The position numbers and the translations under genes were made by a program. Below, in pieces: positions 42,200 to 64,000 of a DNA stretch of 64,000 nucleotides. The stretch lies in NCBI GenBank assembly GCA_000002435.2, contig CM018793.1. The stretch is one strand, 5' to 3'. The stretch is from Giardia intestinalis (taxonomy: Eukaryota). Position 1 is the first letter of the stretch; every line of letters begins with the position of its first letter. The notes under the pieces are model-generated. The model ran no database searches. It saw only the letters and a program-made list of their open reading frames with translations, and was not told the origin of the DNA.

Positions 42200-45100
42200 C
42201 TAAAATCCGAAGTATTCAGCCGCAACACGTTGTATTTCACAGACACTTGCATCTGAGCCTTTCAATGACATGATTGCATCCAGAGGTGAACTGCCATTTT
42301 CTAAACAGAGTGTATGCTCTAGTGGAAGCAAAATCCTAACAAATGCAGGCTTACGTAACTCGATCGCTAAAATAAGCGCTGTCTTACCGTGCTTATCCCG
42401 AACCCCGTGCTGTATTGGTAATAGGGCCCATGCACGGGCTAGATCACCACTTACCACAGCTTGCATGAGCTCGGTGGTTCTAGAACCTGTGTTTGTGATG
42501 TCTACGTTAGTCACATCTGGGCACTCATAAGGTGCCAAGATTTCGGCGATACGTATGTGTCCTTTCTCCAGTGCGTGAACAAGTGCGGTCTTTCCACTGC
42601 TGTCTACAAGACCGGCCTCTCCATGAATTAGATATTCCACTGCAAATAGCCTATTATAGATTGCTGCAAACATGAGTGCGCTTAGGCCGTCATCAGTAAC
42701 TAAACAGAGTAGACTAAGATGCATACCTATCGCACGGGCGTCCCCATCGACTACAGCTTGCATGAGTTTTGTGAGTCCAGTGCGCTCTGTGCACTGACTT
42801 TTTAGTTGCAGTGTTCTACTAGCAGTGCGACTCTTTGCTCTGGTTATTGTTTGGCGCAGTAACGATGCATTTCTTGTCGGAGAAGGCGCCCTAGTGCTTT
42901 TGCTCGACTCATCGGATTGCGGTAGTTGCTGTGCCAACGACGGCCTTCGGGGAGGTACAGAGGGAATAATTATTGGAAGGAGCGTGTCTGTTTCCTGTCC
43001 TAACCTTGTCTGAGAGCTCTCAGAGGGCCTTGCTGATGCCATTGTTATTACTGTAGGGGTTTTAGATCTAGTTGTTGCTTTTAGCTCATTGCGGAAAAAG
43101 GTGAGCTCTTGTGTAGCTGTCTGCAGCTGGGACTTGAGTGCAGTGACTTCTAGCTCCAAGACTTTTATAAGTTTAGCTGTCTCAGTCGTGATGTTACCTT
43201 TATTGATCTTTTTAGTATAATGGTCTGCAAAGAACATAATTGCGTTATCTCTTTCAGCGATTGTTTTGGTCATGGTGTCTATTTCCATTTGCATAGCTGC
43301 ATGTTCAAGTTCGAGCTTAGCCAGTGCTTCCACATAATACTTTTGGTCTTCATTGTTGTCCTCTGTGCTGTCAGAAACATTTAGTAAGTCTCCTATTATC
43401 ATATCTGGTGGTTTTTGAACATGTGAGAAGGCCTTTTTCTTGGAGCTAACTGTCTCTGCCGAGACAGATTTAAGAAGGGCCTCTAGCTCTCGCCGGAGGT
43501 CATTAATGACTTGGTCCTTTTGTGCGAGCATCTCTTCGTGCTGTTGTCTCGTTGCTTGCTCTTCTGTAGTCTTGGTAGAACAAGGGGACTGTACGAGCTG
43601 TGGATAGAGAGTATTGGGGGACACATATAATAATGCAACAAGCCTCTCAATACAAGAATCTTTTGCGTGGAGCAAGCCTGAGTAGTCAGCAGGTTTTAGT
43701 GGAGGTTTTAAAGGCTGGAGAGTGGCAAGAGATGAGGATCTGGTAGGAGGATGAAGAGTTACTGAGAGTGGAGGATTGGGCGGATTAGGAACGGGGATCC
43801 TCCCTGTCCCACTCATTGGATTGATTTTTGAGCAGCTGGAGCTCCTCTTCAAGCTCTTATTGAGATCGTTTGTTCCGCTCTCATTAAAAAGCGTCCGTGC
43901 AAGAAGCTCAGTTTGGGCAGTGTAGCCAGAAAACTCCGCTTTGAAGGCTGTCATTTGCTGCTTTATCTCTCTGATTACATCGCACGACCGTAAGGTCTGA
44001 TCGAACAAGTCTTCAAGCCGGATATCTCGTTCGGTCCTTCTATCAGAAATGAATCCCTGCTGCTGAATGTCGACAAGAACCTTTTTATGTATTACTATTT
44101 TATCTCTTAGGGTCTTAATTTCCTGTGTGACCTCGTCAATGAGCCCTATAAGTTCAACTTCTTTTAGAATTTTTGCATCCAGTTCTTTGCATAACTTGGC
44201 TTCTCGCTTGCTCTGAGATTGTGGCTTAATGTCAACTTCAAACAGAAGCTTCTGTAGCCGGTCAATCTCCAAATCCTTTGTTCGTAAAAGGGAGCCATAG
44301 CTACAATCTTCTAACATCTCGTGTGGCACCTTACTTTGGATGACTCTTTGAGTGGAAGCTTCAGGGAGTGCCATAGTACTAATCAGATCCGTCTCCACAC
44401 AAGCATCAACCCTTCTGCTCGCAGAGTCTGGAACCAGAGATACACAGAGATCAATAAGCCGGTCGATAAACTCGTTCTTTGAAGTGAGTAAACCATCAGA
44501 AATTACTTTAGAAAAGCAGGTGTGTTCTGAATAACAAGATGTGCAGGCATCGATCATGGCAAAGCTATCCGTCATTAGGGTAGAGCGCCGCAGAGTCAAA
44601 GCTTCTAATTGGCTTTGCAGATAGCGTATCTCAGTATCCTTGCGTTCAAGGAGGGGGAGAATTGCACTAGAAGAGTGTGTAAGTCCCCCTTTTCTACCAA
44701 TCTTGCTTCCACACATGCCAGATTTAGATCGTTGATTTGTTTTCAGTAGCTCATATGGAAATGAATCCTTAGATGCCAGTTGTGATTGGACCGAAAGAAA
44801 CCCTTCAGGAATTTCATCACGGCTCCTCTCCATAAGCAAGGGATTTATCTCTTGATGATCTGGTTGCCCTTGCAGTTCAGAAGGCTTTGCGCTTACGAAC
44901 TTTGAGTCATGTGCATGCTTTTGCTTTTGTTTCTTATCTGCTTTTAGTGCCTTAGTAAGCCCTTTATCTTTAGTAGCTTTCTTTCGCGTTGGAGTTTGCT
45001 CAGGTATTTGGCTAGCTAAATTTGCATCTGGGGTTGGGGCTTTATCAACCAACTTCGCAATAGCATTGATAGTCTCATCAAATTCTGGATCAGAAGCACT

Positions 45101-45825
45101 GTCCGGTACACTCCTTTGACGCTCTACCGTTATGGTACTATAATCCAGGTCATCCAAAGCCACCCTAGGACTTTGAACACCTTGAGCGGGCAACATTAAA
45201 GACTGCATGGTGAACTCTGTGGTTAGAGCAGGCCCATCTGTGTCCTTACCAGTTCCACAAGCTTGTGGATCAACATCTCCTGTGTCAAAGTATCGCACAA
45301 CGGCATGATGGCCCTCGGTTTCCGCAAGCGTACGACTATAGATGCGCTCTTGCTTCGACGGTTTATACTGAGTTACTATTTCAACGACACATCTTAAATT
45401 TCCTGTCATAGAAGCGTAGTCAAGTGCATTCAAGTCGTGGTCGTCCGTCACTAGAGAAAAGTAATGTCGCAGTGTGACAAGGGCGTCATAGCTACCCACC
45501 TGGGCTGCAATCATATAAGCATCACGTTTGTCCGGTAAAATTATGTCTGCTTCGAGGGGAGCTAAGAGGCTACACAAATCCGCTGAGTTATTCAGCGCAG
45601 CCATGATGAGAGCTGTACAACCCTCATTATTTACCATCCCCACTTCATAGTCTATTAGGAGCCGCACAATCTCAGCATTTTTCATTTGCACAGCATATTG
45701 TAAGCCCGTTTCACCAAAATCACCACAAACACCTGCACACTCAGGTAGGAGGCGCTCTACCTCGCTTATGTCACCGCTCTGAATGGCACGAAACCACGTT
45801 CTAACCTTATTATCCCTACTCATCA
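42200..45825 (-). CDS. Ankyrin-repeat / long coiled-coil protein (Protein 21.1 family)
   Basis: The track ORF starts at 45826 with TTG (protein MM...). The ATG is one codon later. It has N-terminal ankyrin repeats, an approximately 700-aa coiled-coil/low-complexity core, and a C-terminal ankyrin cassette (TALMFAAIYN..., KTALVHALEKGH..., KTALILAIELRK...). It is a tandem paralogue of the next gene. Confidence 0.8.
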
Positions 45826-45853
45826 AACAAATTTATCATAAACCGATTCACTT

Positions 45854-48800
45854 TTAGACGGATCTGCTAGACAGAAGAGAGCTGAGAATATAGTGGGATG
45901 GCAGGTCCTTGGAGACGTAGAATAGTGCATCGTTCCCTTGGTTGTCCCGGATCTCTTTCTCTACTAGAAGAAGTCGCGCACAGGCTACATGCCCAGCTTC
46001 ACATGCATACATAAGAGCTGTCCTTCCTTCGGAGTCCTGTAACTTAGCTTGTAACCCAAGAAGATTGAACACTATGTATACATCTCCGTGGGCAGCAGCA
46101 GTCATTAGTTCCGTTCTGCGGTTTCCCTCAGATGAATAGACAGAGATATCTAGACCTTCCCAATTCAAGAGAAGGGTTGCAACTTTCAGATGATCGAGTT
46201 GGAGCGCTATATCTATTGCGCGTTTGCCATCTGAACGTGTCTTTCCTGCTTCAAACTCTGCCAGGTACTTAACAGCGGCAGGCACATTGTACTCAGCTGC
46301 CAGCATAAGAGCAGTCGTCCCGTTCTCCAGAGAGTATCCAATTTGCTGTAAGTTTGCGCCGATTGCCCTCATGTTGCCGGTCATGATGGCCTCCATCAAG
46401 GCAGTCGGATTTTTCAGAGGCTCGTGTGCAGATTGCTCACTGCTTCTAAGGATTGCTGTCACAATTGGAGCAACAGATGGTTTAATTAGACCAATTGAAA
46501 GCTGATCAAGAGGAGACGATGCTGCCACAGGGAATGCATCGAAGGAGTTACTCGATGGGATCTTCTCGTCGCCTGAAGATGTCCTAAGAACTGAAGCTGA
46601 TCTATATTCAGAGAGGGGATGTGACCTGGGCAGAAATACAGATGCTGGCCGTTGAGAAGATGACGCCCGAGATGCACCTGTTGCATGAACCTCGGCCATC
46701 AGCTGAGTGACCTGCCCATCTGCCTGGGCCAGCTGTTCAGTCAGACTCAGAATCTTTCCCTCAAGAAGAGAAACAGTCGGGTCGCCACTCTCTGCTGTAG
46801 GGTGCTTCTTAATATAATGGTCTGCAATTGTTGAAATAACGTTATTTTGGATTGAAATAGATAGATTAAGAATGTCAACCTCATTTGATAGCGCTACGTT
46901 TTCAATGACCAAGGAGTCTATGTCCTCAGACGGATGAGGACGTTGATCTAGAGAGTTTTTAGCTGCATCGTTGTCTAGGCTGCGATCTGCCATCAGCATA
47001 AGTAAATTCTGAAGCCTACCTATCTCAGCATCTTTAGCTAGCAATATATTTGACGCGTAGTGGAGTACAACGGGCTTTCCTGAAAGAGGGGATGGTTCAT
47101 GGAGCTGCTCGGTGGGTAAAGACTCGAACGCATCAGCACTATCACTAGGTTCTGGAGTTGCGTGTCGCGAAATTACATGCGCATCTTTAGAAGAAGAAGA
47201 AGGAGGAGGAGGGTATCTAATTGAGCTCTTAGGACGATCCGTACGTTCAAGTGCTTCCTCTCTCTCCTCTAAAAGATCAGTCGCCTTGGCAAGGGCTTCC
47301 TTTGTCTGGGCCAGCTCGGCACGAAGGTCACGTTCTAGTTCATCATATATATCATAGCACACTGGATCCGGAAGACGCGAGACCATACCATCCTGTGTTT
47401 CAGCCTCAAGGGCCTTCTGCAGCGATACTACTTGCATGGCCAATGCCTCCTCACGAGCAACATACTCCTGAACTACATTATCCAACATGTCATAGATGCC
47501 AGAAATCTTCTCAACAGTGTACTCTGCAAGCCTTTTGGAGACCTCATGAGCTGCAACTTCGTATGAGAGGAAGCCAGGAGGGTCTTGGAGAGGTTCAACC
47601 AGAAGGTCTATGGACACAGATGCATCTACCACATGCGTGGATACAGGGGCTATAGCACTAATGGTATTGGCTGTTGACTCACGCTGCACGGTGTTAGTAT
47701 TAATATTTTCTAACAGAGTTATAAGCCTCTCAATCTCGTCGTCCTTTTTGGCTAATATTTGAGAGTATTCGCGGCTAGAGGCTTGAGCTAGTAGTAGCTG
47801 TGTTGCCTGTAGTTGTGCCTCACGTTGCTCGCCAACGGTTCTTAGTTTGTCATTCTCTGACGTAAGGACTCTAAGTCTGCCTTCTACTTCCGCGATAGAG
47901 TTATCACGAGTTTCCATTGTGCTCTCAATTGTTCTGAGCTTCTCTTGCGTTTCCCGAAGAATATCCATGTCGTCACCATATGTTTGTACTTCTTTAAGTA
48001 GAGCACTGTTATCTGCTGTTAAACGTCTGATTTCGGCCTTGAGCTTATCTATTTCCAATTCTTGTTCGTTGGCAGCGAGCGTCAGTAGCCTGACCTTCTC
48101 TTTCTGGGCGGTAAGTTCATTGGTGGCGTCGGAAGCTGGCAAAGCGAGAGACAGTTGCTCCTCTCTTAGGGATCTAAGACGGAGAATCTCCTCATCCCTT
48201 TCTTGAATGGCAAGTTTCAAAGCGTCGATTTCTGCCTGTTCCGTGTTGATCAGATTGCCTTGATGAAATTGAGAGTTTTGAAGAGATGTGGACCGACACC
48301 TGCCAAACGCAGCTCGGCTTTTGGCTAAGCTGGTCGTGGAATGAACCATACTCGACGGGGTAGTTGCCCTGGACACACTTTTCTTGCTAGACCTAGTGCT
48401 TCGACTATCGGTAAGTTTAATGACTTCACTTTCTCCATCGAGATTGGGGCTGCCATTGAGAACTGCTGGTTGTTCTTGTGCTATGTTAACTGAGTATGCG
48501 CTGATAATATACTTCAAACGATCTATTTCTTCATTTTTCTCCAGTAGTTCTGCTTGCAATGATGTGATAGTAGCGTCCTTAGTTTGAAGCATATCCAAGG
48601 ACGCTTGCTGTGGAAGAGAAACTCCACCAGCACCAATCTGGACCCCTAAAATTGCGTTCAGTCTAGCTGTGGAGCTCTGCCCATCATCTGCATATGCACT
48701 GTCATGAGCATCTAGTACAACTGAGGCTGGCGGTGTAGCGATTCTGGCAACAACATCGCATAGTACTGGAGAGTCTTCTTTCATATCATTGAACACAAAA

Positions 48801-51475
48801 GCAAGGCATTCCTGATCTGCATTTTTAGTGGCGGACCTCTGCAGGCGCTCCTTGAGGTGAGTATTTTCAGCGACCAGCCGTTCATTCGTTGCCTTCAATT
48901 GCTCTAGTAGCTTTTTCATATTAGTAGCGTCATCATATAACGGGGGCGAAGTACATTTGTTCGACTCTCGCGTCAACTTTTCTAACCGATCGTTGTCTGC
49001 TTCTAGACCACGAACTCGCTCTGCCAGAAGCAGGACCTCGTTGGTTAGCCGAACATTTTCATCTGCAAGATCTTGAGGAATGCGCTTGCTTGAAGCAACA
49101 GGGGTCGCTGCTCTACTACGATCCTTTTTCTTCAATCTCCCCAGCGAGAGACTTCTCTTCGAGTTTGTCATGGTGTTGCCCATACTACCCATGCTTGCTT
49201 TTAGATCGTCTAACTCTTGGGTCTTAGTCTCCAGTTCGTCAAGCAACAATTGTATCTGTTTTGGTGACGTTTGTGAATGATCAAGATTGCCTGGATCTAA
49301 GTCAGGCATAGAGTTTATCACCTCACGGAGCCGCTCTATTTCTGCGTCTTTATCAGCAAGTAGTGAGATTAACTCACGTGTAGAGGAGATGGTATCCACA
49401 ACGTCTTCCATAGTAGAAGCACACAGGCTTTCTGACAGGCCCTTTACTCCTACCCTAGAATTGGCAAGAATCTTACAAAGCTTTGAGTCGTCATGTTGCG
49501 GCCTTTCGCTAAGCTCCTTCTTAAGCGTCTCGTTCTCCTTCAGTAGATCCTCCACCTCATGTTCTAAGGCCTTTATTTTATCGGTCAGTGAATCTATTGC
49601 AGCAGGAACAGGCATCTGCACCCTGTGTAGTTCTGTTGCATCCAAGAGCTCCTGAAGCTCGTTAATTTTGGCGGCCTGTTCCGCAATTACTTTGTTCATA
49701 AGCTCTTCCTTGTTAGTTTCGAGGGTCTTTGGGGTGATCGTGCCATCCGTTTCAACTCTAGCCAGCTGTTCTCTGAGAAGATGTATCTCTTTGTCACGCT
49801 CAGCAAGTTGGATGATTGTGTTCTTGCGGTATGCATCAAAGCTAGAAGATGACCGAGTGGTAGCATCCTTGCGCACAGATTTACCACGCCCAAAGAGCGA
49901 GGACGTGCTCAGTCTGTTTGAATTGCGACTCTTGACACTGGACTCTGCCTTCATTTCTTGATATCCTACTGTGGCCTGTAGGTCGCTAACTCCTCGAGAC
50001 TGATATTCGGAGATAAGCTCCTGAAGCATGGCGATAGTATTGTTCTTCTCGTCTATTATCTTGTCGAACTCTTCCGTAGTAACTATGGAGCAAGAGATAG
50101 GAGCGTCTTGCAAATCACCCAAATACTTCCTGTTTTGTCTACTAAATACATTTTCCGAGGGATCTGCGGTGCTTCTTTTTGGCCCGCACATCGGAGGTGT
50201 TCTCGGTCTGGACTTGTCCTTTAGCATGGCGGTGACCGACTTGGACCGACGCCGAGGCTTCTTAGCGCTCGAAGGCCGCAAAAACTCTAAATCCTCATAT
50301 ACTAAAATATCCGTGTTCTTCTGATTCTCTTCTTGAATATAGGGCTCATCAGATAGATGCTTCTGTCCGGTTTGTGCCATTTGCAACATGTGTTGGAGAT
50401 TCATGTTTTCCTGAACGGATAGTGCATACGCATCTTCCAGATGTCTGATCCTTTCCGTTAACTCGGCCATTGCTGATTCATTATCTAGACACGATAAAGC
50501 GTAATTGCCAATGGCTGGAGACGTACCAAACCCAATTGGTGATGTGGCCGTGGCAGTAGCAGCGGGCTCTGTTGTGGGCAAACAATAAGGATAGTTTGCC
50601 TGCTGGAGCTTTAGATTCTCCATCTGCAATGTTATTATCTCATTTTCTTTAATCTGCATAGAGTTGGTGAGCTCTGTGATCTTGTGCCTTAGCATGCTCA
50701 CTGTCTGTCCATGCCTGTCGTTGAAGTCGGTGACAGAGGAGGTTACTGACCCGACATACGACGTAGTCATCTGGGAAGCTGTTAGAGGGTTTTGCTGAGG
50801 AGTCCGCATGGGACTCGGAGATGACTCAGCGGCATAAACAGAGGTTTTGGTCTGAGGTTGAGTTGTGGACGGACGGTGTTTAGATGGAACAAATGCGTGT
50901 ACGTTAGATGTGCGGCGTGCATTATTTTTAAAAGAAACCAGGGCACGTTCAATCTCTAAAAATCTATTCTCTGAGGCCACGTTAATAGCATATTTGAGCT
51001 CGATGTTAGATATTCGCTGTGAGGACAGTATAATATTGACGCAGTCTAGATGACCCGAATTAACAGCATAGTCCAGGGCGTTGAGCCGCGCCTTATCCTG
51101 TCGCAACTTAAAGTTCTTCGTCATCATCAGAAGCGCCGCTGCGGCTCCAACTTGTGCTGCTAGCATGTACGAGTCTCTACCATCGTCGAGAGTGATGTCC
51201 TTCTCCAGGGGCGCCAAAACCTCACACAGGCCCGGATTGTTGGAAAGAGCAGCGACCATGAGAGCCGTGTAACCAGATGTACTAACTAGTCCAGCCTCAT
51301 ACGGGATTAGTATGTGGGCCATTTTTAAGTTCCCAGCGCGACACGCCTGAATGAGAGCAGTATCTCCATCAATGTTAACGTATCCTTTAAAGCTTTCAAC
51401 AAGAGAGCGTACGGTTTCTTGGTCTCCTTGCGCAACAGCGTGGAACCACGCTGCCTCGGAAGGTGATTGAAACAT
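45854..51475 (-). CDS. Ankyrin-repeat / very long coiled-coil protein (Protein 21.1 family), 1873 aa
   Basis: ATG start. The N-terminal 150 aa align position-by-position with the downstream paralogue (WF.A...GD...V..L...G.TAL..AAL.N...LC..LAPLE.DI.L.D.RD.YM.AAQVG...LNALDYA). More than 1000 aa of heptad-rich coiled coil follow. The C-terminal ankyrin cassette is shared with 60429..63269. Confidence 0.8.
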   Translation of the reverse strand: MFQSPSEAAWFHAVAQGDQETVRSLVESFKGYVNIDGDTALIQACRAGNLKMAHILIPYEAGLVSTSGYTALMVAALSNNPGLCEVLAPLEKDITLDDGRDSYMLAAQVGAAAALLMMTKNFKLRQDKARLNALDYAVNSGHLDCVNIILSSQRISNIELKYAINVASENRFLEIERALVSFKNNARRTSNVHAFVPSKHRPSTTQPQTKTSVYAAESSPSPMRTPQQNPLTASQMTTSYVGSVTSSVTDFNDRHGQTVSMLRHKITELTNSMQIKENEIITLQMENLKLQQANYPYCLPTTEPAATATATSPIGFGTSPAIGNYALSCLDNESAMAELTERIRHLEDAYALSVQENMNLQHMLQMAQTGQKHLSDEPYIQEENQKNTDILVYEDLEFLRPSSAKKPRRRSKSVTAMLKDKSRPRTPPMCGPKRSTADPSENVFSRQNRKYLGDLQDAPISCSIVTTEEFDKIIDEKNNTIAMLQELISEYQSRGVSDLQATVGYQEMKAESSVKSRNSNRLSTSSLFGRGKSVRKDATTRSSSSFDAYRKNTIIQLAERDKEIHLLREQLARVETDGTITPKTLETNKEELMNKVIAEQAAKINELQELLDATELHRVQMPVPAAIDSLTDKIKALEHEVEDLLKENETLKKELSERPQHDDSKLCKILANSRVGVKGLSESLCASTMEDVVDTISSTRELISLLADKDAEIERLREVINSMPDLDPGNLDHSQTSPKQIQLLLDELETKTQELDDLKASMGSMGNTMTNSKRSLSLGRLKKKDRSRAATPVASSKRIPQDLADENVRLTNEVLLLAERVRGLEADNDRLEKLTRESNKCTSPPLYDDATNMKKLLEQLKATNERLVAENTHLKERLQRSATKNADQECLAFVFNDMKEDSPVLCDVVARIATPPASVVLDAHDSAYADDGQSSTARLNAILGVQIGAGGVSLPQQASLDMLQTKDATITSLQAELLEKNEEIDRLKYIISAYSVNIAQEQPAVLNGSPNLDGESEVIKLTDSRSTRSSKKSVSRATTPSSMVHSTTSLAKSRAAFGRCRSTSLQNSQFHQGNLINTEQAEIDALKLAIQERDEEILRLRSLREEQLSLALPASDATNELTAQKEKVRLLTLAANEQELEIDKLKAEIRRLTADNSALLKEVQTYGDDMDILRETQEKLRTIESTMETRDNSIAEVEGRLRVLTSENDKLRTVGEQREAQLQATQLLLAQASSREYSQILAKKDDEIERLITLLENINTNTVQRESTANTISAIAPVSTHVVDASVSIDLLVEPLQDPPGFLSYEVAAHEVSKRLAEYTVEKISGIYDMLDNVVQEYVAREEALAMQVVSLQKALEAETQDGMVSRLPDPVCYDIYDELERDLRAELAQTKEALAKATDLLEEREEALERTDRPKSSIRYPPPPSSSSKDAHVISRHATPEPSDSADAFESLPTEQLHEPSPLSGKPVVLHYASNILLAKDAEIGRLQNLLMLMADRSLDNDAAKNSLDQRPHPSEDIDSLVIENVALSNEVDILNLSISIQNNVISTIADHYIKKHPTAESGDPTVSLLEGKILSLTEQLAQADGQVTQLMAEVHATGASRASSSQRPASVFLPRSHPLSEYRSASVLRTSSGDEKIPSSNSFDAFPVAASSPLDQLSIGLIKPSVAPIVTAILRSSEQSAHEPLKNPTALMEAIMTGNMRAIGANLQQIGYSLENGTTALMLAAEYNVPAAVKYLAEFEAGKTRSDGKRAIDIALQLDHLKVATLLLNWEGLDISVYSSEGNRRTELMTAAAHGDVYIVFNLLGLQAKLQDSEGRTALMYACEAGHVACARLLLVEKEIRDNQGNDALFYVSKDLPSHYILSSLLSSRSV

Positions 51476-51498: not shown

Positions 51499-52191
51499 AT
51501 GGAGCTTGTGATAGAACCAGTTAAGCAGCATAGGCGCCAAACTCTGTCCACCCAGGTACGTGAGGGCAGGCAACAAGCAGAGGAGAAAGCCCGTTGTGTA
51601 GATAAGCAAACTGTCGACTGGAGCAACAAATCCTTTGCAACAATTCGATTGCCAGAGCAAAAAACCACTAAGTACGAGGATTGCTGGAGTTCGTTTTCTG
51701 ATACGTATACTGACATTGTGACGTCTGAATTCATAGAGCAAATCGAGAAACAAACTAAAGAACAAATCCGGATTAATGAACTCCCAAGGCAAAGCACTAC
51801 ACCTACAGTCGTCAACATAAATCCACCTTCACCAGAGCGGTCAACTGTCAATCAGAGAGCCTTCAAAAAATTAGCACAACCCCGAACGTATCGAAAAGGA
51901 TATCTGCCAACCAGTACAGTATTGTCTCCGACATTTGCATTTTGCAATAGAAGATACCTAGAGCACAGTCTCTCAAAGAACACAGAATCACCAAAATCAG
52001 AGAAGAAACGTGCGGAGATTATGTCCTGCAAACGATTAGCTCATTCAACGGATATAGCCATTCACTGGCATAAATATGGCGAGCATACAGAGTCAGTTCT
52101 TCATATAAACGCTTTTAGCCATTACGCAGAGCCACGTAAGGCGTCTTATGCTACAGGGACCATAGAGAAATCCGAGAAAGCTCTGGAATAG
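51499..52191 (+). CDS. Hypothetical small basic protein (230 aa), questionable
   Basis: This is the only ORF over 200 aa in the 675-bp spacer between two minus-strand genes. It overlaps the Raptor 3' end by 41 nt. Lys/Glu/Thr-rich with no motifs. It could be a chance ORF. Confidence 0.25.
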   Translation: MELVIEPVKQHRRQTLSTQVREGRQQAEEKARCVDKQTVDWSNKSFATIRLPEQKTTKYEDCWSSFSDTYTDIVTSEFIEQIEKQTKEQIRINELPRQSTTPTVVNINPPSPERSTVNQRAFKKLAQPRTYRKGYLPTSTVLSPTFAFCNRRYLEHSLSKNTESPKSEKKRAEIMSCKRLAHSTDIAIHWHKYGEHTESVLHINAFSHYAEPRKASYATGTIEKSEKALE

Positions 52192-55100
52192 CGATCAATG
52201 GGGCTCGCGGGTGGAATGCAATGCACTGAGGTTCTGTCTGTATGGGCGCTTTGTATGACATTTCACCTAGACACACTCCTGAAACATGTCCAAAAGTGAT
52301 GTTATACGTGAGAATATTCGCTGATTCTGTGTTACCAGGGCTCAAGGGCGTATCTTCTACGCACGAAAATAGCCCAGTATTGTGAAAGTTAACTGTCCTG
52401 GAGCTGGGTATAGAGTACTGCTTCAGTACAGTATCGGTGGCAGTGTCCTTGGACAAGAGTCTGCCAGATGCCGTTGACAAGAAAAGGGTATTGTCATACA
52501 ATGCACCACCATTGATGACCTCCGGGACCTTACCGGTCATAACTGAATTATTGCTTCTGGCATCAAATATGGAGTATTCTTTAGATCCATATGTCAGCAC
52601 TCCACAGCTCAATATGCCTGAGCACAAAGGTACTACATTATCGACAAGGTGGGCAGGCCTAAGTGTCAGGTACTTGGACTCGTGCATGAGATCTATGTAG
52701 CTGACCTCTGTCCCGCCCCGAATGGCAGTCACAATGTGTGGTGCTGTGGTGTGCATCTCTAGAAGGTCTGAATGTCCTCTAAGGATGGGGATGTTATTGG
52801 GCAGCACGGGGGTGTATGTCCACTCACCAACTCGCCTGGCAGATCCAGGTTCGTCTGGCTTCTTCTTTTCATGGAATAACGCGTTGCATATCTTGCTACG
52901 GGCGATAATGTATTGCTTCTTATGATGATTAAGAACAATATCAGGAGAGCTCATGTCTGCATTGAACTTATGTCTATAAAACTCGGCTATTGCATATGGA
53001 CACTTTTGCAGCCTTGTAGACGAGTATAGTGGCTCTGAAGAAGGTGTTCCTACGTTGAACGCGGACGTGTGTCTGCAAAGAGACGTGTCATGATAGTTTG
53101 TAAGAATTCTAACGGTACAATCTGCTGCAGCAATAGCCACCACGCTATGAGGAGTATGCTGGTTCAGAAGGACTATGTCTCCAAGCCAAGCAGATCTATT
53201 TTCCATAGAATATGGGCTTCTTTGCTCTCTGATGAGCTCGGTCATCTTAGAGTATGCGCTAGTCTTATTCTCCAGTGGCACAGCCTCTTCGTCATCGTCC
53301 ATGTCTGGGAAAAGCTTTCTTAGTAGCTTCGGATCAAAGTCTCTTGCCGAAGCAGAGCCTTGCTTGTATAAAATCTTCAGCAGTTGTGAAGAGAAGCTTT
53401 TCAGGACACTATAGTCTAACGACCTTGATGTATTGAGAATGCAGCAGTGGGGACACTCAAGAGATGCTGCATCTGCTTCGAGCATATTAGCTAAGATAAT
53501 TGGCTCAAGGGCTGTGCAATTATCCGTCGCCCAGTTCATCATATTATACGCTTGCGGACCTTGTGGGAAAGCAAGCATTGGGGTATGCAGGTGGCCTGAT
53601 ATTATCCCCCCGCCGGGCCAAGACGTAGGCTGGACGTCCAATATTAGATCAAGTGGTAGCTTATTCAAGAGCTCTCCGGTCGTGGTGTTCCAAACGCAAC
53701 AGGTAGATCCGTTATTCGTAAGCAGAATCGTCTCATTTCGATGAAATACAGCACTTTTAATTGCGCCAGTGCAATGAGAAATAGAGTTGACCTTTTTTAA
53801 CAATAGGGCTGACTTTTCTGAGCAGCGTGCCCCTCCACTGGATTTGTATTCTGCGAAATAGAACGCCCCGTTATCACCTACTCGCCTCTTTAGAACGTCA
53901 CGTACTTCACGTGCCTTCTTCACAGGAGCAAATCTAGAGCTAAGGTGATCTCTTTGCTCGGGATACATTGTGTGAAGTTGTCTTAGAAGATCAACTTCAG
54001 TCATAGCAGTGCAGCTGTTATTGCTTTCCGCATCTGGGAAACTCGTTCGCGAGGTTGCCTGAGAGGGAGCATTTATCTGCCTCAAACTAATCATTGGAAT
54101 AGTTTCGCTGCCTATGCTGTGCGCAGAATCAACTTTTGGAAGCATCTCCATTACAAATAACCCCTCCGGGACAGACTCTGTGGCCAACTTTATAATGGTG
54201 TTGTCTGCTCCTTCTCCGGGCTTTAGTTCCTGTGCATTGCTTTGACTGTTGGGCGAGGACTTTGGAAGTATCTGAAAGGAGCCATCACTGTTTATTGTTA
54301 ATGGCTGAATGTTGGAGCTAATTGACTTCTGAGATAGAAGAGCTGATTTCATCCCTATCTGGTTGTCAGATAGCTTTAAGAATCGAACCTTGCTTAGACT
54401 CTCAGATAACCGATCATAGTCAATATCATTGATTGTAGCAGTGATTCTATTATGCATCTCCATTAGAAAGTTGTTCCTAGTCCATATAAGTGAAGAGTTG
54501 TTATCAGTTGTAAAAAGCGATGTCCTATTTTGTTGGGTGTAACGTAGAATAGGAGATTGCTCTATGCTATTAAGAGATATCATAAGGTAGTTTGAGAAAT
54601 CAAAGAACAAGGCGTGTAGAGCGAGAGAACATACGTATGGAACGAGGTAACCAAAATAAATCTCCTCCATAGGAACTATTAGTTCGTCTCCAAAGTATGC
54701 CTGCGATATCTCACAATACGCCAACGATTCAAGATATGGGAATGGTGATGCAGCCGTTTGCAATTTGAACCGAACAAAGTCGTGTGAAGGCAAAGTGGCA
54801 CTGGTAGATGCGGTTTTCAAGGGTGAGCCAGAGGATTTGCTTTTCAATTCCTTGATGTTTCTTTTCGCTGGTGATGTACTAGTTGAGCTCCTATCTGCTC
54901 TGTTGACCTTTTCGTTATCCTGCATAATTCGTACTCCCAGAGGATTAACATCCCTTGTAATAGTAAACCTTGTAATAGTAAATCTAGAGGAGCTGGTAGG
55001 AAACTGGAGGTTGCTCCTGCTCCATATGCGCATAGCGTCCATACAGTATGTGAGGAGAGGACTAGCCATCGCTGCATTGCGACAGAAATGGCAATAGTGG

Positions 55101-58100
55101 TCTATCACATGCATGCGTTCAAATTTGTCCACCTGGTGTTGCAAGTCATTGAAGTCAGCCTTGCCGGTGCTCTTTGCCAATTCCTCAAAAAGTTGTATGG
55201 GACGGACAAAAAGATTGCCTTTTTTATTATCCCAAGAAGAATATTTTTCACTTTTTAAAAGGTCATGGTCTCTCAGCGTTTGGATTTTAGAAAAGGATGC
55301 GATGTCATTTCCCAGATAACTGGTATTTTTTCGGCGTTGTGACATCAGTGAAAACACATTCGACTTATCACTGCTTAAGGTATTGAGATGCTCCTGTTCT
55401 CGTGAAACTGTGGGTCCAAGTCCACTTCCAGTAAATACTACGGGCGTGGACGGAGAAAGACGCCGTATATCGCTACGGTTTGTTTTCACAGCGCATAGGT
55501 ATCCTTCACAAATGCTTGGCATGTAAGAGCTGAATGATACTCCATGAATGCTCGCGTGGAGAACAGAGTATTCTCTTGGTGGTACTCCTGGAGGAAGAAC
55601 CTCTGTTACCAGCATAGTTTCTAGTTGTGGCGTAGATTGCGTTTCGGGCGCTTCTGGCTTCAGAGTAGTCTTTCTCTTGCTGCAGCTTTTAAGATAGGTG
55701 AGAACAAAGTGAAAGTAAGAGCGTAAACGAGCATGGTCGAATTCTGAGAGTTTTCTTACTTCAAGATCAAACAGGGATGGCCACGGGCTCTGAACGGCGT
55801 CTTTCTCTTGAGATATTGCGGCAGGTGAAGAGATATTCTCAGTGCTATTGAAAATGCGTTCCTTTCTGATAATCCTTTCTTCCATATTCATAGAATTAAA
55901 TTGCAGAGGATCCAGCATAACGGATACAGAATGCTGATAGTGTATCGATGTCGAGGAAATCATTTCTGAACGACTACTACTGCTACATTGCCCAATAGAT
56001 AGCCTAGGCGATCCTGCAAGGTCCTTAACCTTATCAAGAGATAGTAGAGATAGAGAAACCTGTGGGTTAAAGTCCAGACACTTTGTACTTGACGGAGAGA
56101 TGACATAATCCCGCAAGAAAAATGGCAGGCTGGCAAGGGCAGATCGCCCACAAGGACAGCATGCATCGTGCATTCTATAATAGCTGGCTCCACGATCATT
56201 GATGGATAGGAGTGAATGTACAGGACACATCTTCATTGACCGGTGAACTTTCTGCGCCGCGACAGAAGCAGCAGCCTCTATGTTAAAACATATAGAGGGA
56301 AAACGAATGCTGTTTCTGGAGAGAGTAAGAATAACAGATGCACAATTGTAAATCGACGCCACTATCTGAGGCATGCAAATGCGGATTGCCAGCTCTAGCC
56401 ACACGGCATCTAGCTGTTGTAGTAATAAGAACTTCTCTTTGAAAAACTCCAATTCGTGCATATTACACTCGGTTACATCTGATGTGTCCTTTGATTCTGG
56501 CTCAGTAGCAACTAATGTATTATTAATGTCACTTATAGAAATGTCAGATTGATCTGAGTTGCTATCAAAATTGAATGCTTTCCGTTGTTTTATAGAAGTC
56601 GTTACAAAGGAATTCTCAGACGTTTCAGCGCTTTCCGTCGTTCCTGCCGGATATGATTTTGCAGATTGAGAGGTTCCAGGGTTCTTGGAAAATTGGCTCA
56701 TAGACAGACCTTGTGCTTCGGTTGTTTTCAAGGTGATTGCAGCAGTATCTATGCAGACTCCATTAATCTTAACGCTAGTTAGAGGTGATGACTCCAAGTG
56801 GTTATAACACGCTGAGGAAGAGCGCAGAGCTGCGGCTAGGATATGTTTGATCTGTTTCTCTGAGAGATTGCGAACAAGACTGAGCTTCTGTATAATTAGC
56901 CTAACTCGCTGCATGCTCCTATCATTAAATACTTCCCTAACAGCGTTTAATATCTCAGCCTCTGTACTAAGCCTATTAGCAGAAAATCTTTTTTCAAGGT
57001 AATCCTTGCAATTGATGTGGAAGAAGTCATTTGTCATCGGCGTTGTTTGCAATAACAAGCACAGAGCGAGAGACGACACTCCATCAAAGAGATGCCGTGC
57101 TCTAATGGAGATAATCGACACAGGATCATACATTGCTTGCTTAAGTGTGCTATATGTAGTGTGAATAATAGGGTTGACTTGATGAGTCTGGAATCCGTTA
57201 AATATCTTCACATATGCGTTAGAATACATATCATATGCCACTATTAAGTCACTTGTTGCTAGAGCAAGGAAACTTTGAAAGTACAGGGGGATAACACGCG
57301 CAATGCAGCATAGGGCTTCATGTCTGACTAAAGGACTTACGTCATATATGCAGAGCTTAGAAATATTGAGTATAATATCTGGGGGATTCAAGTTGATGCT
57401 CTTATCAGACCCTGCCAAAAAGCTTTCGTTCCAAGTTTCTGACTCCGAGTCGCCCGGATAAAATACATCAACAACCCGATGACAGGCAATGATTGAAATC
57501 AAATCCACAACAGGTAGAGACGAGGTGACAACAGAGATAGCGGCTGCACGTATTTCTGCTGTCATGGATGGCTCAAAGAGCTTCATAAGGATGCCATAGA
57601 TATCGCGGATCTTCCCATAGTTACTTCCATAAGCAACTACGGATTCTGGCTGCTTGAAGTTATCATGTGCAGATGATATCAATTCGTCAGCAGTGAGCAA
57701 TGGCTCTACAGCTTCCTCTACTTGATCCGGCACAAATGTCAAAGAGAACAGCTTTGTTGACGAGCTAAGAAGGTTTGATGAGCTAGTCGCAATCACCATG
57801 CTATTTGAAGTAGGGATTGTTTTAGTGTAGGTATGAAGGGAGGGGCTTGATAGTCTGTTTGATCGTAGCTTTCTAGTATCTGTGACTGTTGTCGTCAGGT
57901 TGTGCATAAGTTCTGAGAGCAGAAGAAGACTCCAAAGCTTAATGTGTTCTGATGCCGAATGGACTAGAATAGCAAGTGCCTCGAGCATATTCTTCTGCAT
58001 TAAACTTTCGCGCATTATTGTGCAACACTCAGAAATGATGCGAGGATCGTCCCCTTGAGTATTCTGTGGCATATAAAAGCCAAACCCGTTTGTTAGGGTT

Positions 58101-60112: not shown

Positions 60113-60428
60113 AAAGCTATCGGCCGATTTTTTTAAAGAGAACCTAAGTTGTCACCGAAATTAGGTGCCTGTAGCTCTGATAGCAATGTGTCCTAGTTAT
60201 TTGCTCAACGAGACTGTGTGGGCCCAATATTTACTGAAACTTCTGTTTACTCGTTGAAAAATGACTCAGAGACGACTCACTATACATGGCGCATGTTTCT
60301 ATTAAGGACAACCAAGCGTTAGTAGCATAGAGGTTGCCGAAGGTAGCAATATTACAATATTTTAAGTTGATTGTATGGAGGCGGACACCCAATTACAAAT
60401 TTGCACTTAATTAATTGGAAAAAATCCG
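60113..60428. promoter_or_regulatory. 316-bp divergent intergenic region between Raptor and an ankyrin/coiled-coil gene
   Basis: Flanked by ATGs on opposite strands. It ends in cacttaattaattggaaaaaatccgATG. Confidence 0.35.
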
Positions 60429-63269
60429 ATGCGTCCAGCCAAAAGGGGTAAGTCTCAACTGTCTAAGCAGACTGTTGCTGAATCATCTCCCCCGCAAATA
60501 GCGAATGTGCCTCTGCCGGAGAACAGCACTCAGGCGATAGGCGACCTCTTAGAACGTGGCGCAGATCTTTGCACTGCGTACTCACAACTTGCCGATCAAC
60601 GCACCTCTTTACTCTCTGAACAGTTAGAGCAATGCAGTAACCACGATCTTAAGCGCTACTATAGTCGGCTCAATGAGGAACTGACTCTAATCACCCAGAT
60701 CAGCTCGAGGTTGCGTGCAGATCTTAAGTTCATTGCAGCGCAGTCACAAGGATTAATTGTCATTAGCTCTAAAACCATGTCTGATGACCCAGGGCTCTCA
60801 TACAGTTCTTCTCCACCCAGTAAGATGGATGCGTCTGATAGATGTCATGGGTCAATGACCGAGTCAACGCTCCAGGCGTCGACGCGAAGGTCCACGCGCC
60901 TCACTCCCAGTGAGGTTGAGGACTCCCTGGTTCAGGAGTTTATTAGAAAAGGTAACGCGCCCAGATCTGAGGCCGTCAAGTATGCTAAAATTGCTATATC
61001 ATTTGACCCCTCTGGGTATGCTGTTGGTGGAGACAAGCGGAGCTATAAAGAAGAGTTCATTGCAGCTAACTCTGAAAAAATTAGGTTACACGCAATGTTG
61101 CGAGATTCGGAAGCAGAGGTACAACGCTTGAGGAGCTTGGTTGAGCAAGCGCCATCTGAATTAGAGACAAAGCAGCTCAGAGCCAAGACTGCTATACAGG
61201 AAGACAAGATTAACTCTCTTAGATCAGTTTTGTCAATCAGGGATGCATCTAGGACTCGTGACAGCGTTGGTGAGAGTGCCCCTGCATCTCGTCTCGACCA
61301 TGATTTGGTGGATGAATTAACTAAGGAGAACATGGCTTTAAGAATAGAATTGGATAATCAGATCTCTATTGCTAATGCTCAGAATAAAACACACAAGCAA
61401 GAAGTTAGAAAGTTGCGTGAAAAGATCAGTGCTATGCAAAGTCAAGCGTCTCAGGAAGAGAATAAGCCTCAGTTCAAGGAAGCCTCGACCACACCTCAAG
61501 CTTCGGGGCTGTTTGAATCTACTCTGGGTTGTGATACCGGGTATCCTTGTTCTGATGATGACTCTGTGGACAAGAGCTATGTCGCTGAGCTTGAGGATGA
61601 CTTGACTCGTGCGCTATCTCGCATACAAGCCTTAACGGAGGAGAGGAACGCCCTTCAGGCAGATCTGAATAACAAGCTTTCTGCCAAGGCTGAGACTAAC
61701 CTTACAGCTAACCAAGTCCAGGAATTGGCTGCAAACAACATGATTCTCTCTAACGCTTTAACTGCACAGCACCAGCAGCTGACGGCTGCTTTCGCTGAGC
61801 TGAATCAAAAGAACGCCGATCAGCTTGTCCTGCAAAATACCATTCAACAGTTGACAGCTCAGCGTGATTACAACTCTCAAGCAATACAGGCGGAGATGAG
61901 TTCAAAACTAGATGCACAGATCAAGCTATACACAGAGCTTAAGGCTAATTATGAAAGTGCATTGGAGCTTATACAACAGCGCGATGACACTATTCTTCAG
62001 ATGTCAAATGATCTTTCCTCAAATGATAGGGTCACCATGCGCTGTGATAGAGACAATGCACGGCTAGAGCTTAAGGAGTGCAACCAGCAGCTTACTGAAA
62101 CAAAGCGACTACTACAGATGGTCACAGAGGCCATGGGGTATGAAGGCGGCTTCCCAACCACAACTGATGTTGAGCTTTGCGTTTCTCAGCACCAAAGGGA
62201 CAAAGAAAAGAAAACAATGCTAGAAACTGAGTATGCCTTGGCAAAACGAAAAATAGATAGTCTGGAAAAGGAATTGGCTGAGCTTAAGTCAAGTAGAGAC
62301 AGTCTGCAAAGCGCTATCCCCCCTAAGGTAACCCCGGCCAGTGCTATTTCCGCAGCTATTGCAGGTAGCAATGAAATCATTACTCCCCAGGATGCACAGC
62401 GATGTAATACACTATCTAATACTCTCACAGTTGCCCAAGGAATTCCTGGAAGTGCGACTGATTTGATTCGTAGCATGCGGGTCACTGGGGCCGACTTAGC
62501 ATCGTTTCGGACTTCTTCCGTCCGTACCACCAACAAAGCTGGGGTCGCATATGCAAGTTGTGAAATTCTCAATAGTTACACGCCGTTAATGAAAGCAATC
62601 ATAGCCGGAAATAACAGTGCGGTTTCACAAACTATTAGCTTCATAGGAAAGGCGGCGCTTGACGGCACAACAGCCCTCATGCTAGCCGCAATATATGACA
62701 ATAAAGAGGCGGTAGAGATATTAGCACCCCACGAAGCGATGATGAAGAGAAACGACGGAGCCACCGCGCTTAAGTTGGCTTTGCAGACACGACACCTAGG
62801 TCCAGCATCGATCCTGCTTAATTATGAGGGACCTACACTTCCTAAACAATTGCCGGGCTATCCACGTGAGGTAACTGCTTTGATGAAGGCTGCAGAGTTA
62901 GGTGATGTGGTGCTGGTATTTAGCTTGCTCGCTTCTCAAGCTGGGGCGAAGGATGCAGATGGAAGGACGGCTCTGATGAGGGCTGCACGAGCTGGGTTTG
63001 CAGACATAGTGTGGTTGCTAGCTCCACAGGAAGCTGGAATGCAGCTCATTAACGACACAGAGCTTGGCCCGGGCTCAACCGCACTGATGCTGGCTGCAAA
63101 TCAAGGACACCTCGAGTGCGTGAAGCTTCTAATTGCTAGCGAGCGAAAGTATAAGAATAATCTGAACTACGATGCTCTTTTCTATGCTCAGAGTTCTGCA
63201 TCTCATGTCTCCCCGGAGGATAGAGCTTCTATCATCGCTTTGTTAGAAGAAGGGTCTGGCACCCACTAA
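60429..63269 (+). CDS. Coiled-coil protein with C-terminal ankyrin repeats (Protein 21.1 family), 946 aa
   Basis: ATG start. It has about 600 aa of coiled coil. The C-terminal ankyrin cassette (TPLMKAIIAGNNSAV...GTTALMLAAIYDN...REVTALMKAAELGDVVLVFSLL...DGRTALMRAARAG...DALFYAQ) is nearly collinear with the C-terminus of 45854..51475. Confidence 0.8.
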   Translation: MRPAKRGKSQLSKQTVAESSPPQIANVPLPENSTQAIGDLLERGADLCTAYSQLADQRTSLLSEQLEQCSNHDLKRYYSRLNEELTLITQISSRLRADLKFIAAQSQGLIVISSKTMSDDPGLSYSSSPPSKMDASDRCHGSMTESTLQASTRRSTRLTPSEVEDSLVQEFIRKGNAPRSEAVKYAKIAISFDPSGYAVGGDKRSYKEEFIAANSEKIRLHAMLRDSEAEVQRLRSLVEQAPSELETKQLRAKTAIQEDKINSLRSVLSIRDASRTRDSVGESAPASRLDHDLVDELTKENMALRIELDNQISIANAQNKTHKQEVRKLREKISAMQSQASQEENKPQFKEASTTPQASGLFESTLGCDTGYPCSDDDSVDKSYVAELEDDLTRALSRIQALTEERNALQADLNNKLSAKAETNLTANQVQELAANNMILSNALTAQHQQLTAAFAELNQKNADQLVLQNTIQQLTAQRDYNSQAIQAEMSSKLDAQIKLYTELKANYESALELIQQRDDTILQMSNDLSSNDRVTMRCDRDNARLELKECNQQLTETKRLLQMVTEAMGYEGGFPTTTDVELCVSQHQRDKEKKTMLETEYALAKRKIDSLEKELAELKSSRDSLQSAIPPKVTPASAISAAIAGSNEIITPQDAQRCNTLSNTLTVAQGIPGSATDLIRSMRVTGADLASFRTSSVRTTNKAGVAYASCEILNSYTPLMKAIIAGNNSAVSQTISFIGKAALDGTTALMLAAIYDNKEAVEILAPHEAMMKRNDGATALKLALQTRHLGPASILLNYEGPTLPKQLPGYPREVTALMKAAELGDVVLVFSLLASQAGAKDADGRTALMRAARAGFADIVWLLAPQEAGMQLINDTELGPGSTALMLAANQGHLECVKLLIASERKYKNNLNYDALFYAQSSASHVSPEDRASIIALLEEGSGTH

Positions 63270-63279
63270 TATGGAAATT

Positions 63280-63286
63280 AGTGAAT
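63280..63286 (+). terminator. Putative poly(A) signal AGTGAAT 11 nt after the stop of 60429..63269
   Basis: AGTRAAY match (aAGTGAATttc) downstream of the TAA at 63267-63269. Confidence 0.4.
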
Positions 63287-63304
63287 TTCTTTTCCTAAAA
63301 AATA

Positions 63305-64000
63305 ATGACGCTAGAGCCGCACATTCTCCACGACGAGGATACCAATGACAGCGAGCAACACAGGGCGGCGTCGTTTTCTGATGTCTATGAGCTGTGCAGT
63401 ATTCTGCGAGGCGGATTTTCACTAGCGGAATACTTAGTTAGGCATATATCCATTGGTGAGAAATTCCTATGTGTGGAGCTCGATTACGGGAATATAAAGC
63501 ATTTCAATAAGGAACTCTGTCTGGCACGGCTCATGAGCTTCATGGGTCACCAGCATGCTAACCATTTGACATACCGTGAGTTCTTTGCAGACGAAGATGC
63601 CAGAAAGATCCAAATTATTATGGAGCCTTACATTAATAAATGCCTTTGTGACGTGATAGACCAGATTTGTCGCAGAAAGCTTACTCTTTCAGACGACGCT
63701 ATATGGGGTATCATTGCGCAGGTGTTCAATGGGCTTTATTTCTACCATCAGACTGACATCAATGGATTTTGTGGGAAAACACCCATTCATGGCGGAATAA
63801 ATGCCGAGAACATATATATTTCGACTAACGGAGTTGTACAATTGGGCCCGTTTCGGCTCCTCCCAGATTTTGAAGATGACTTCGATAACCTGCAGGAAGA
63901 TAGCACAGTGATACTGCCAACAAGCCCCGGCTCCACAGTACAGTCGTCGTGGAATGTTTCAGATCTTCAGGCCCTTGGATGCATAGTCTATGAGCTCTTG
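63305..64000 (+). CDS. NEK-like protein kinase-like protein, N-terminal part; partial, continues beyond right edge; predicted pseudokinase
   Basis: Open frame from the ATG at 63305 to the window end. It is not in the ORF track because it is incomplete. The kinase-fold landmarks are degenerate: IHGGINAENIYIS occupies the place of HRDLKPENI, and LGPFRL the place of DFG. Subdomain IX reads LGCIVYEL. Confidence 0.6.
   Translation, partial: MTLEPHILHDEDTNDSEQHRAASFSDVYELCSILRGGFSLAEYLVRHISIGEKFLCVELDYGNIKHFNKELCLARLMSFMGHQHANHLTYREFFADEDARKIQIIMEPYINKCLCDVIDQICRRKLTLSDDAIWGIIAQVFNGLYFYHQTDINGFCGKTPIHGGINAENIYISTNGVVQLGPFRLLPDFEDDFDNLQEDSTVILPTSPGSTVQSSWNVSDLQALGCIVYELL

Follow-up and report, generated by a model that had tools for sequence, protein, structure and literature searches.

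We found that two adjacent genes in the genome of Giardia intestinalis WB (ATCC 50803), hereafter A and B, are likely to encode functional, Giardia-specific ankyrin and coiled-coil proteins of the Protein 21.1/ARP-1/"head-stalk" type and to form an ancient tandem pair, the products of which may be linker-like. The window, that is, the whole stretch of DNA that was analyzed, spans 64,000 nucleotides. Both genes are already annotated, and B has been published and localized with GFP in the rim of the attachment organelle. What our analysis adds is that the downstream neighbor of B, gene A, appears to be its ancient tandem paralogue conserved as far as G. muris, that the two proteins share a private non-ankyrin block, and that the N-terminal ankyrin cassette of B is essentially frozen among assemblages. 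These additions are of modest importance and leave the understanding of the ankyrin family unchanged; for ventral-disc research, they suggest that A is worth studying beside DAP103810, as B is known, and that the frozen cassette of B could serve as a bait for partners.

Gene models, genomic neighbors and published record

The two giant ORFs noticed in the first-pass annotation are indeed present next to each other on the minus strand, at 42200-45826 and 45854-51475. B lies upstream of A on this strand and ends with a TAA stop codon. Since the annotated start of A is the ATG at 45823, the genes are separated by 30 nt, and not by the 28 nt given initially. The features to which we refer below are:

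42200..45823, minus strand: gene A, encoding a 1207-aa ankyrin/segmented coiled-coil (predicted)/ankyrin protein; ORF with an exact match to XP_001709363.1/A8B623
45854..51475, minus strand: gene B, encoding a 1873-aa ankyrin/segmented coiled-coil (predicted)/ankyrin protein; ORF with an exact match to XP_001709362.1/A8B622
45299..45823, minus strand: N-terminal ankyrin cassette of A (aa 1-175, ~5-6 repeats; profile match over aa 1-173 at 257 bits; six helix pairs in the structural model)
43070..43354, minus strand: non-ankyrin helical block of A (aa 824-918, 'LELEHAAM...FFADHYTKK...LELEVTALKSQL'), common to B
42284..42784, minus strand: C-terminal ankyrin cassette of A (aa 1014-1180)
50951..51475, minus strand: N-terminal ankyrin cassette of B (aa 1-175), almost invariant across G. 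intestinalis assemblages
46676..46930, minus strand: non-ankyrin helical block of B (aa 1516-1600, 'LVIENVALSNEVD...TIADHYIKK...LEGKILSLTEQL'), common to A
45926..46417, minus strand: C-terminal ankyrin cassette of B (aa 1687-1850)
45824..45853, minus strand: B-A spacer, 30 nt from the stop codon of B to the ATG of A
60429..63269, plus strand: DAP103807 (GL50803_103807), encoding a 946-aa protein with a coiled-coil region and C-terminal ankyrin repeats (Pfam Ank at aa 720-902)

At E ≤ 0.01, the Pfam matches of A and B are to ankyrin families only and fall at both termini of each protein, in four stretches per protein, with Ank_2 reaching E 8e-34 in A and 1e-41 in B. Matches to Ank, Ank_2, Ank_3, Ank_4, and Ank_5 lie above the gathering score; thus, both are ankyrin-repeat proteins. 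In NCBI and UniProt the two carry the name "Ankyrin repeat protein 1", and their orthologues in strain P15 that of "Protein 21.1", which agrees with the assignment to Protein 21.1-type genes made from the sequence. The ARP-1 class comprises proteins with ankyrin repeats and neither a kinase nor a zinc finger (Xu et al. 2020, bioRxiv 10.1101/870949). A and B, in which ankyrin repeats occur with no other recognizable domain, have the make-up of this class, and like the other Protein 21.1/ARP-1 members they belong to a large family specific to the Giardia lineage.

Beyond A, the window contains the genes of a calcineurin-like phosphoesterase (Metallophos) and a class I tRNA synthetase, and beyond B a 230-aa ORF, a 2653-aa gene whose product has a Raptor N-terminal domain, and an ankyrin gene of 946 aa. 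The last of these is GL50803_103807, as identified by its length and by both published primers, which match apart from 1-nt indels; its product, DAP103807, was localized to the whole disc (Hagen et al. 2011, PMC3243723). DAP103807 resembles B in its neighborhood, its coiled-coil region, its disc localization, and a C-terminal cassette that is 42% identical to that of B. Yet, in contrast to A and B, it is encoded on the opposite strand and possesses neither an N-terminal ankyrin cassette nor the ADHYxKK block and KDxEIxRL motif described below. The gene lies ~9 kb away, outside of the tandem pair, and has no counterpart at the equivalent position of the G. muris locus. According to Xu et al. 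2020 (bioRxiv 10.1101/870949), ARP genes are dispersed through the genome with no evident clusters, and such families are linked to rearrangements. Against this background, A and B seem to constitute a small local exception, a tandem pair of old standing with another related gene, which encodes a DAP, 9 kb off.

B is GL50803_103810 (DAP103810), since its length of 1873 aa and mass of 206 kDa are those of the published protein and the last codons of B (45857-45882) are an exact match to the reverse cloning primer of the published study. The forward primer is situated ~175-200 nt upstream of the ATG of B, with a few indels relative to the window; this primer and both 103807 primers gave no match within 3 mismatches and were located by reading the sequence, to which they correspond except for single-base indels. 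For GL50803_103810, described as an ankyrin repeat protein, a size of 1873 aa and 206 kDa was reported (Hagen et al. 2011, Table 1, PLoS Negl Trop Dis 5:e1442, PMC3243723), and GL50581_4395 and GLP15_4036 were given as its orthologues. Its C-terminal GFP fusion was assigned to "disc edge, BA edge", which corresponds to the lateral crest plus the inner rim of the disc next to the bare area (PMC3243723). The association with the disc or cytoskeleton, proposed initially for both genes, is thereby backed by published data for B. The paper mentions neither the paralogue A nor the conserved tandem. As for A, the 2011 disc proteome tables contain no 1207-aa entry, and searches of UniProt and RefSeq accessions, candidate neighboring ids, and paper supplements returned no GL50803 id for it and no record of its localization, interactions, or knock-down. 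Ankyrin repeats are the sole domain in about one third of the 87 known DAPs.

Architecture and shared sequence of the two proteins

The regions between the ankyrin cassettes measure ~840 aa in A and ~1510 aa in B and are composed of ~10% Ser, 7-9% Thr, and 5-6% Pro. A rough home-made heptad heuristic delimits 5 segments in A and 11 in B, which cover 17-24% of the residues vs. 3-5% in shuffled sequences. The AlphaFold2 model of A, built from a 5-sequence alignment, is of low confidence (pLDDT 37), and its secondary structure alone was used; it displays about ten helices of 13-50 residues amid long non-helical stretches, and the five heptad segments of A coincide with helices of this low-confidence model. 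The stalk is predicted to consist of short helical segments placed between Ser/Thr/Pro-rich linkers, partly disordered, rather than of a continuous coiled coil. From the architecture proposed in the first-pass annotation, with N-terminal ankyrins, a coiled coil of 700-1400 aa, and C-terminal ankyrins, we could retain the ankyrin ends but not the uninterrupted coiled coil.

Such an organization brings to mind the Giardia head-stalk proteins GASP-180 and GHSP-115, which Elmendorf et al. are said to have described in 2005 and which are reportedly cytoskeletal, with about five ankyrin repeats forming a head at the N-terminus and a long coiled-coil-rich stalk. Likened to them by description only, A and B also start with an ankyrin head, followed by a stalk that is predicted to be coiled coil in short segments; they differ by the second, C-terminal ankyrin cassette and by a stalk that is broken by long Ser/Thr/Pro-rich stretches.

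We found that the N-terminal cassettes of the two proteins align over residues 10-167 of both, with 43% identity and no gaps (BLASTP, E 6e-28, 110 bits), so that the residue-by-residue correspondence noticed earlier for the first 150 positions, and taken as a sign of paralogy, extends over ~160 residues. In comparison, the N-terminal cassette of A matches the C-terminal cassette of B with 44 bits over 61 aa (BLASTP) and ankyrin proteins from outside of Giardia with ~48 bits. The similarity between the A and B N-termini is well above the generic ankyrin level, and the suspicion that it might be confined to ankyrin consensus positions does not apply, given 110 bits vs. the 44-48 bits of generic matches. 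A second BLASTP alignment joins residues 808-1166 of A with 1493-1837 of B (29% identity, E 2e-30); it reaches ~200 residues upstream of the C-terminal ankyrin cassette and takes in ~100 non-ankyrin residues.

These residues form a block of ~95-115 aa with a distinctive, non-heptad core, AI(M/S)(F/T)(F/I)ADHY(T/I)KK, flanked by two helices. Queried with the block of A (aa 816-930; core 824-918), BLASTP returns B with an E value of 5.6e-7, followed among non-orthologues by a protein at E 0.26; the reciprocal search with the block of B has the same outcome. An HMM of the block, run against 158 representative ankyrin proteins and DAP103807, recognizes the A clade, the B clade, and the G. muris A protein only, next to one weak match of 12 bits in the paralogue P0015. 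The ADHYxKK block appears, on this evidence, to be a shared derived character absent from the other paralogues examined. A database profile search with the shared block retrieved one 67-aa fragment and missed A and B themselves; it is uninformative on other carriers. At the codons for ADHYxKK, a 23-nt stretch of DNA is 91% identical between A and B. The stalks share a second motif, (Y/S)xLLxxKDxEIxRLxxLL, of which A has four copies, B and the G. muris A protein three each, and G. muris B one, while shuffling predicts 0.03-0.17 occurrences per protein. Outside of the sequences used for building the motif model, it was detected in the related P0012/P0177/P0217 clade only and was not seen elsewhere in the 158-protein set.

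Being adjacent, positioned on the same strand, and homologous in the N-terminal cassette, the helical block, and the C-terminal cassette, A and B show the position and the homology expected of tandem duplicates. Recent gene conversion and tandem-repeat expansion were rejected, as there are no long DNA repeats either between or within the two genes.

Position in the ankyrin family, age and selection

The N-terminal cassette is a hallmark of the whole subfamily and is not specific to A and B. Three dispersed paralogues, P0012 (assemblage B, 1213 aa), P0016 (WB XP_001709255), and P0015 (WB XP_001707383), share the N-terminal region of ~160 residues and are 35-42% identical to A and B over the same stretch, with scores equal to or above that of A with B. 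Counted as clades, there are at least three, apart from A and B, in which dispersed paralogues fit the cassette equally well (117-128 bits vs. 104-122 bits between A and B). Therefore, the gapless N-terminal match, in itself real, does not mark the pair in the way the first-pass annotation assumed. A profile search with the N-terminal cassette against 1.84 billion representatives, ranked by summed score, was dominated by multi-ankyrin proteins; it yielded paralogues, but its Giardia set was incomplete and missed DAP103807.

The abundance of such cassettes makes it conceivable that A and B became neighbors by chance or rearrangement, several dispersed paralogues being as close to them as they are to one another. 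Up to 3.6% of the ORFs of Giardia encode ankyrin proteins (Hagen et al. 2011, PMC3243723), ankyrin repeats occur in 4 of the 25 large ORFs of the window, and rearrangements have been tied to these families (Xu et al. 2020, bioRxiv 10.1101/870949). Furthermore, the N-terminal cassette of A scores higher with the P0012 type (117 bits) than with B (104 bits), and the C-terminal cassette of DAP103807 is as close to B as that of A (42% identity to B vs. 37% between B and A).

Our phylogenetic analysis, which consisted of bootstrapped neighbor-joining trees of the ankyrin cassettes with an incomplete paralogue set, bears on this question from both sides. A groups with the G. muris A protein in 94.5-100% and B with G. 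muris B in 95-100% of the bootstrap replicates. The tree of the N-terminal cassette alone does not join A and B (7% bootstrap) and places B with the dispersed P0012-type clade. In turn, the C-terminal cassette recovers the A and B clades as sisters with 70-76% bootstrap (57% once DAP103807 is added), as does the concatenation of both cassettes with 59%, so that the ankyrin-domain trees support the sisterhood of A and B weakly. A mere coincidence of position is also opposed by the non-ankyrin block, common to A and B only (one-sided BLAST), and by the location of the closest other relative, the P0012 type, the gene of which sits at an unrelated locus. Taken together with the long-standing adjacency of the genes discussed below, we regard chance neighborhood as unlikely. 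The case for a tandem origin is founded on the adjacency, the private block, and the moderate support from the C-terminal cassette, and not on the N-terminal match.

The organization of the locus is conserved well beyond G. intestinalis WB. In P15 (assemblage E), B and A are adjacent, with an assembly break inside A, the orthologue of which is GLP15_4037. The order B-A-phosphoesterase-tRNA synthetase is kept in a divergent metagenomic Giardia (L003, 76-80% identity). In G. muris, a 1128-aa gene closest to B (P0011) is followed after 34 nt, on the same strand, by a 1156-aa gene closest to A; the orthologues of the phosphoesterase and tRNA synthetase genes come next, on the opposite strand. The comparison of copy numbers that had been recommended for this locus thus reveals both genes in assemblage E, L003, and G. 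muris. Since both genes have 1:1 orthologues in G. muris, arranged in the same order and with the same downstream neighbors, the duplication appears to predate the G. muris split. The two genes have been adjacent since before this split although the upstream flank is inverted, which also speaks against their being neighbors by accident.

The local tandem duplication put forward initially is therefore upheld as regards tandem paralogy but not as a recent event. A recent duplication specific to G. intestinalis, followed by fast divergence and the growth of one copy, would fit the common strand, the adjacency, the short spacer, and the unequal lengths of the genes. It is refuted, however, by the G. 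muris locus with its two 1:1 orthologues in the same order, and agrees poorly with other observations: no DNA-level similarity between A and B was seen beyond the 23-nt motif, and synonymous divergence between assemblages has already reached 0.6-1.8 while amino acid identity between A and B is only 29-43%. We consider this scenario extremely improbable.

The difference in length between A and B seems to be due to a later change in B between species, and not simply to a divergence of the two copies after duplication, as had been thought from their sizes (1208 vs. 1873 aa). This is indicated by the stable length of A (1156-1208 aa in G. intestinalis and G. muris), compared with 1850-1890 aa for B in G. 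intestinalis assemblages vs. 1126-1128 aa in G. muris-type genomes. The G. muris B protein lacks the ADHYxKK block, which A and the G. intestinalis B retain; on grounds of parsimony, at least a part of the difference would thus result from a deletion in the G. muris lineage.

To estimate selection, dN/dS was calculated by the Nei-Gojobori method between WB and its P15 or L003 orthologues. Orthologue comparisons were used because synonymous sites are saturated between A and B at 29-43% amino acid identity (pS exceeds 0.75 already vs. G. muris). We obtained 0.12 (vs. P15) and 0.08 (vs. L003) for A, and 0.09 for B (WB vs. P15). The ankyrin cassettes are the most constrained parts (0.00-0.05; 0.04 for those of A), followed by the stalk and linkers (0.07-0.17). 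For the N-terminal cassette of B, 170 codons compared with P15 contain no nonsynonymous change at a dS of 0.79, i.e., 100% amino acid identity, and in more distant assemblages the identity is still 97.6-99.4%, vs. 86-95% for the N-terminal cassette of A. These ratios point clearly to purifying selection on both genes, and thus to functional proteins, and indicate that after duplication the heads of A and B have come under unequal constraint.

That one of the copies, most likely A, is a redundant duplicate in decay or without function could be argued from the fact that the 2011 disc proteome did not include A and from the faster evolution of its N-terminal cassette (86-95% vs. 98-100% identity in B). 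Against this stand the dN/dS values of A, both in its cassettes and overall (0.08-0.12), and an intact ORF of stable length in WB, other assemblages, and G. muris; the ORFs of A and B are intact in every genome seen, and A orthologues in other assemblages are 73-99% identical. The truncated copy of A in P15 coincides with the assembly break. Decay of A hence has next to no credibility in our view.

Possible roles of the proteins and the B-A spacer

The history that we find most likely starts with a single head-to-tail tandem duplication in the ancestor of the genus Giardia, before the separation of G. muris and G. intestinalis, with A and B kept side by side ever since. Each protein carries an ankyrin cassette of five to six repeats at either end and, as predicted, a stalk of short helices capable of coiled-coil formation interspersed with flexible Ser/Thr/Pro-rich linkers. 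With this build, A and B may act as long dimerizing structural linkers, in which the ankyrin ends would dock onto disc or cytoskeleton partners and the segmented stalk would set the reach and provide flexibility. The near-invariant N-terminal cassette of B possibly binds a highly conserved partner, whereas A may perform a related but distinct job.

A more elaborate possibility is that the genes have been kept adjacent because their products work jointly. The block and the KDxEIxRL motif would then be register sites for heterodimeric stalks, and the resulting rod, bearing four ankyrin ends, would cross-link elements of the disc margin or lateral crest, while the spacer would couple the expression of both genes. 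We regard this proposal as speculative and rather improbable.

An AGTRAA-type polyadenylation signal and an AT-rich initiator are general elements of Giardia gene structure. In the 30-nt spacer, AGTGAA is located two bases past the stop codon of B (three bases in G. intestinalis relatives), and ATAAATTTG immediately 5' of the ATG of A; we take the former to resemble the poly(A) signal and the latter the AT-rich initiator. The spacer is conserved in 29 of 30 bases in assemblage E (P15), where dS of the flanking sequences is ~0.6, and differs in L003 by 2 substitutions and a 2-nt deletion at a dS of ~1.7. A bicistronic or operon reading of the pair is not favored, as conserved elements within the spacer itself look like a 3' end and an AT-rich start. 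Based on the resemblance of these elements to a poly(A) signal and an initiator, A and B are probably transcribed separately from their own signals, with each gene presumably expressed alone from those contained in the spacer.

Stalk motif and C-terminal cassettes

In both adjacent ankyrin/coiled-coil genes (gene A, encoding 1207 aa, and gene B, encoding DAP103810), a motif roughly 20 aa long, (Y/S)xLLxxKDxEIxRLxxLL, recurs at the starts of predicted helices.

Copies of the motif
Gene A: aa 390-408, 510-529, 715-733, 763-782
Gene B: aa 704-721, 1238-1257, 1475-1493

The motif is also carried by the G. muris orthologues of both proteins and by a clade of dispersed ankyrin paralogues (P0012/P0177/P0217), and none was detected in the other members of the representative set of 158 ankyrin proteins. 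The C-terminal cassette of A is a three-repeat unit duplicated internally, as it contains a 40-nt direct repeat (42444-42483 and 42741-42780; 73% identical, 297 nt apart) whose copies code for both 'T(E/K)LMQAVV.GD' starts of the cassette.

A third disc-associated gene of this kind lies 9 kb away from gene B, on the opposite strand.

60429-63269 (+): GL50803_103807 (DAP103807), 946 aa, disc-associated ankyrin and coiled-coil gene

At the C-terminus, the ankyrin cassettes of DAP103807 and B share 42% identity, slightly above the value for A versus B. The N-terminal cassette, the ADHYxKK block (a non-ankyrin helical block common to A and B) and the KDxEIxRL motif are all absent from DAP103807.

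Spacer, flanking ORF and rearrangement

Genes B and A are separated by a 30-nt spacer (45824-45853), which is conserved among assemblages far above the level of adjoining synonymous sites and includes AGTGAA shortly past the stop codon and ATAAATTTG ahead of the ATG. The flank on the other side of gene B carries a further ORF.

51499-52191 (+): 230-aa ORF between gene B and the Raptor-like gene

This ORF has no Pfam match, and 41 nt of it are shared with the 3' end of the Raptor-like gene; its counterparts are annotated as genes in P15 (209 aa) and in a divergent metagenomic Giardia (217 aa).

We compared the flank at 52151-63997 with the G. muris locus (L001 1272-9976). In G. muris, the Raptor-like gene directly adjoins the gene found past DAP103807 (63365 onwards), and both are inverted relative to the ankyrin pair; neither DAP103807 nor the 230-aa ORF is present at the corresponding place. 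A rearrangement breakpoint therefore lies immediately beside the ankyrin genes.

The orthologue of A in the assembly of P15, an assemblage E isolate (L002 15635-17932), ends at 765 aa and is followed by unrelated genes, with its C-terminal 622 aa found on a separate contig (EFO62278.1). A break or chimera in the assembly is a more probable cause of the shortened copy than a genuine truncation.

Published primers and other family genes

Cloning primers for GL50803_103810 and GL50803_103807 were published in 2011 (Hagen et al., 2011, PMC3243723), and the native-promoter primer of gene B falls within the 230-aa ORF. The GL50803_103810 forward primer and both GL50803_103807 primers show single-base indels against our sequence (51647-51676, 60229-60259, 63246-63266). 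These indels, mostly within short single-base runs, suggest errors of the old assembly or of the table text.

The window holds further family genes.

436-2499 (-): NEK-like protein kinase, 687 aa, ankyrin repeats at the C-terminus
31780-33849 (-): 689-aa ORF with Giardia VSP domain
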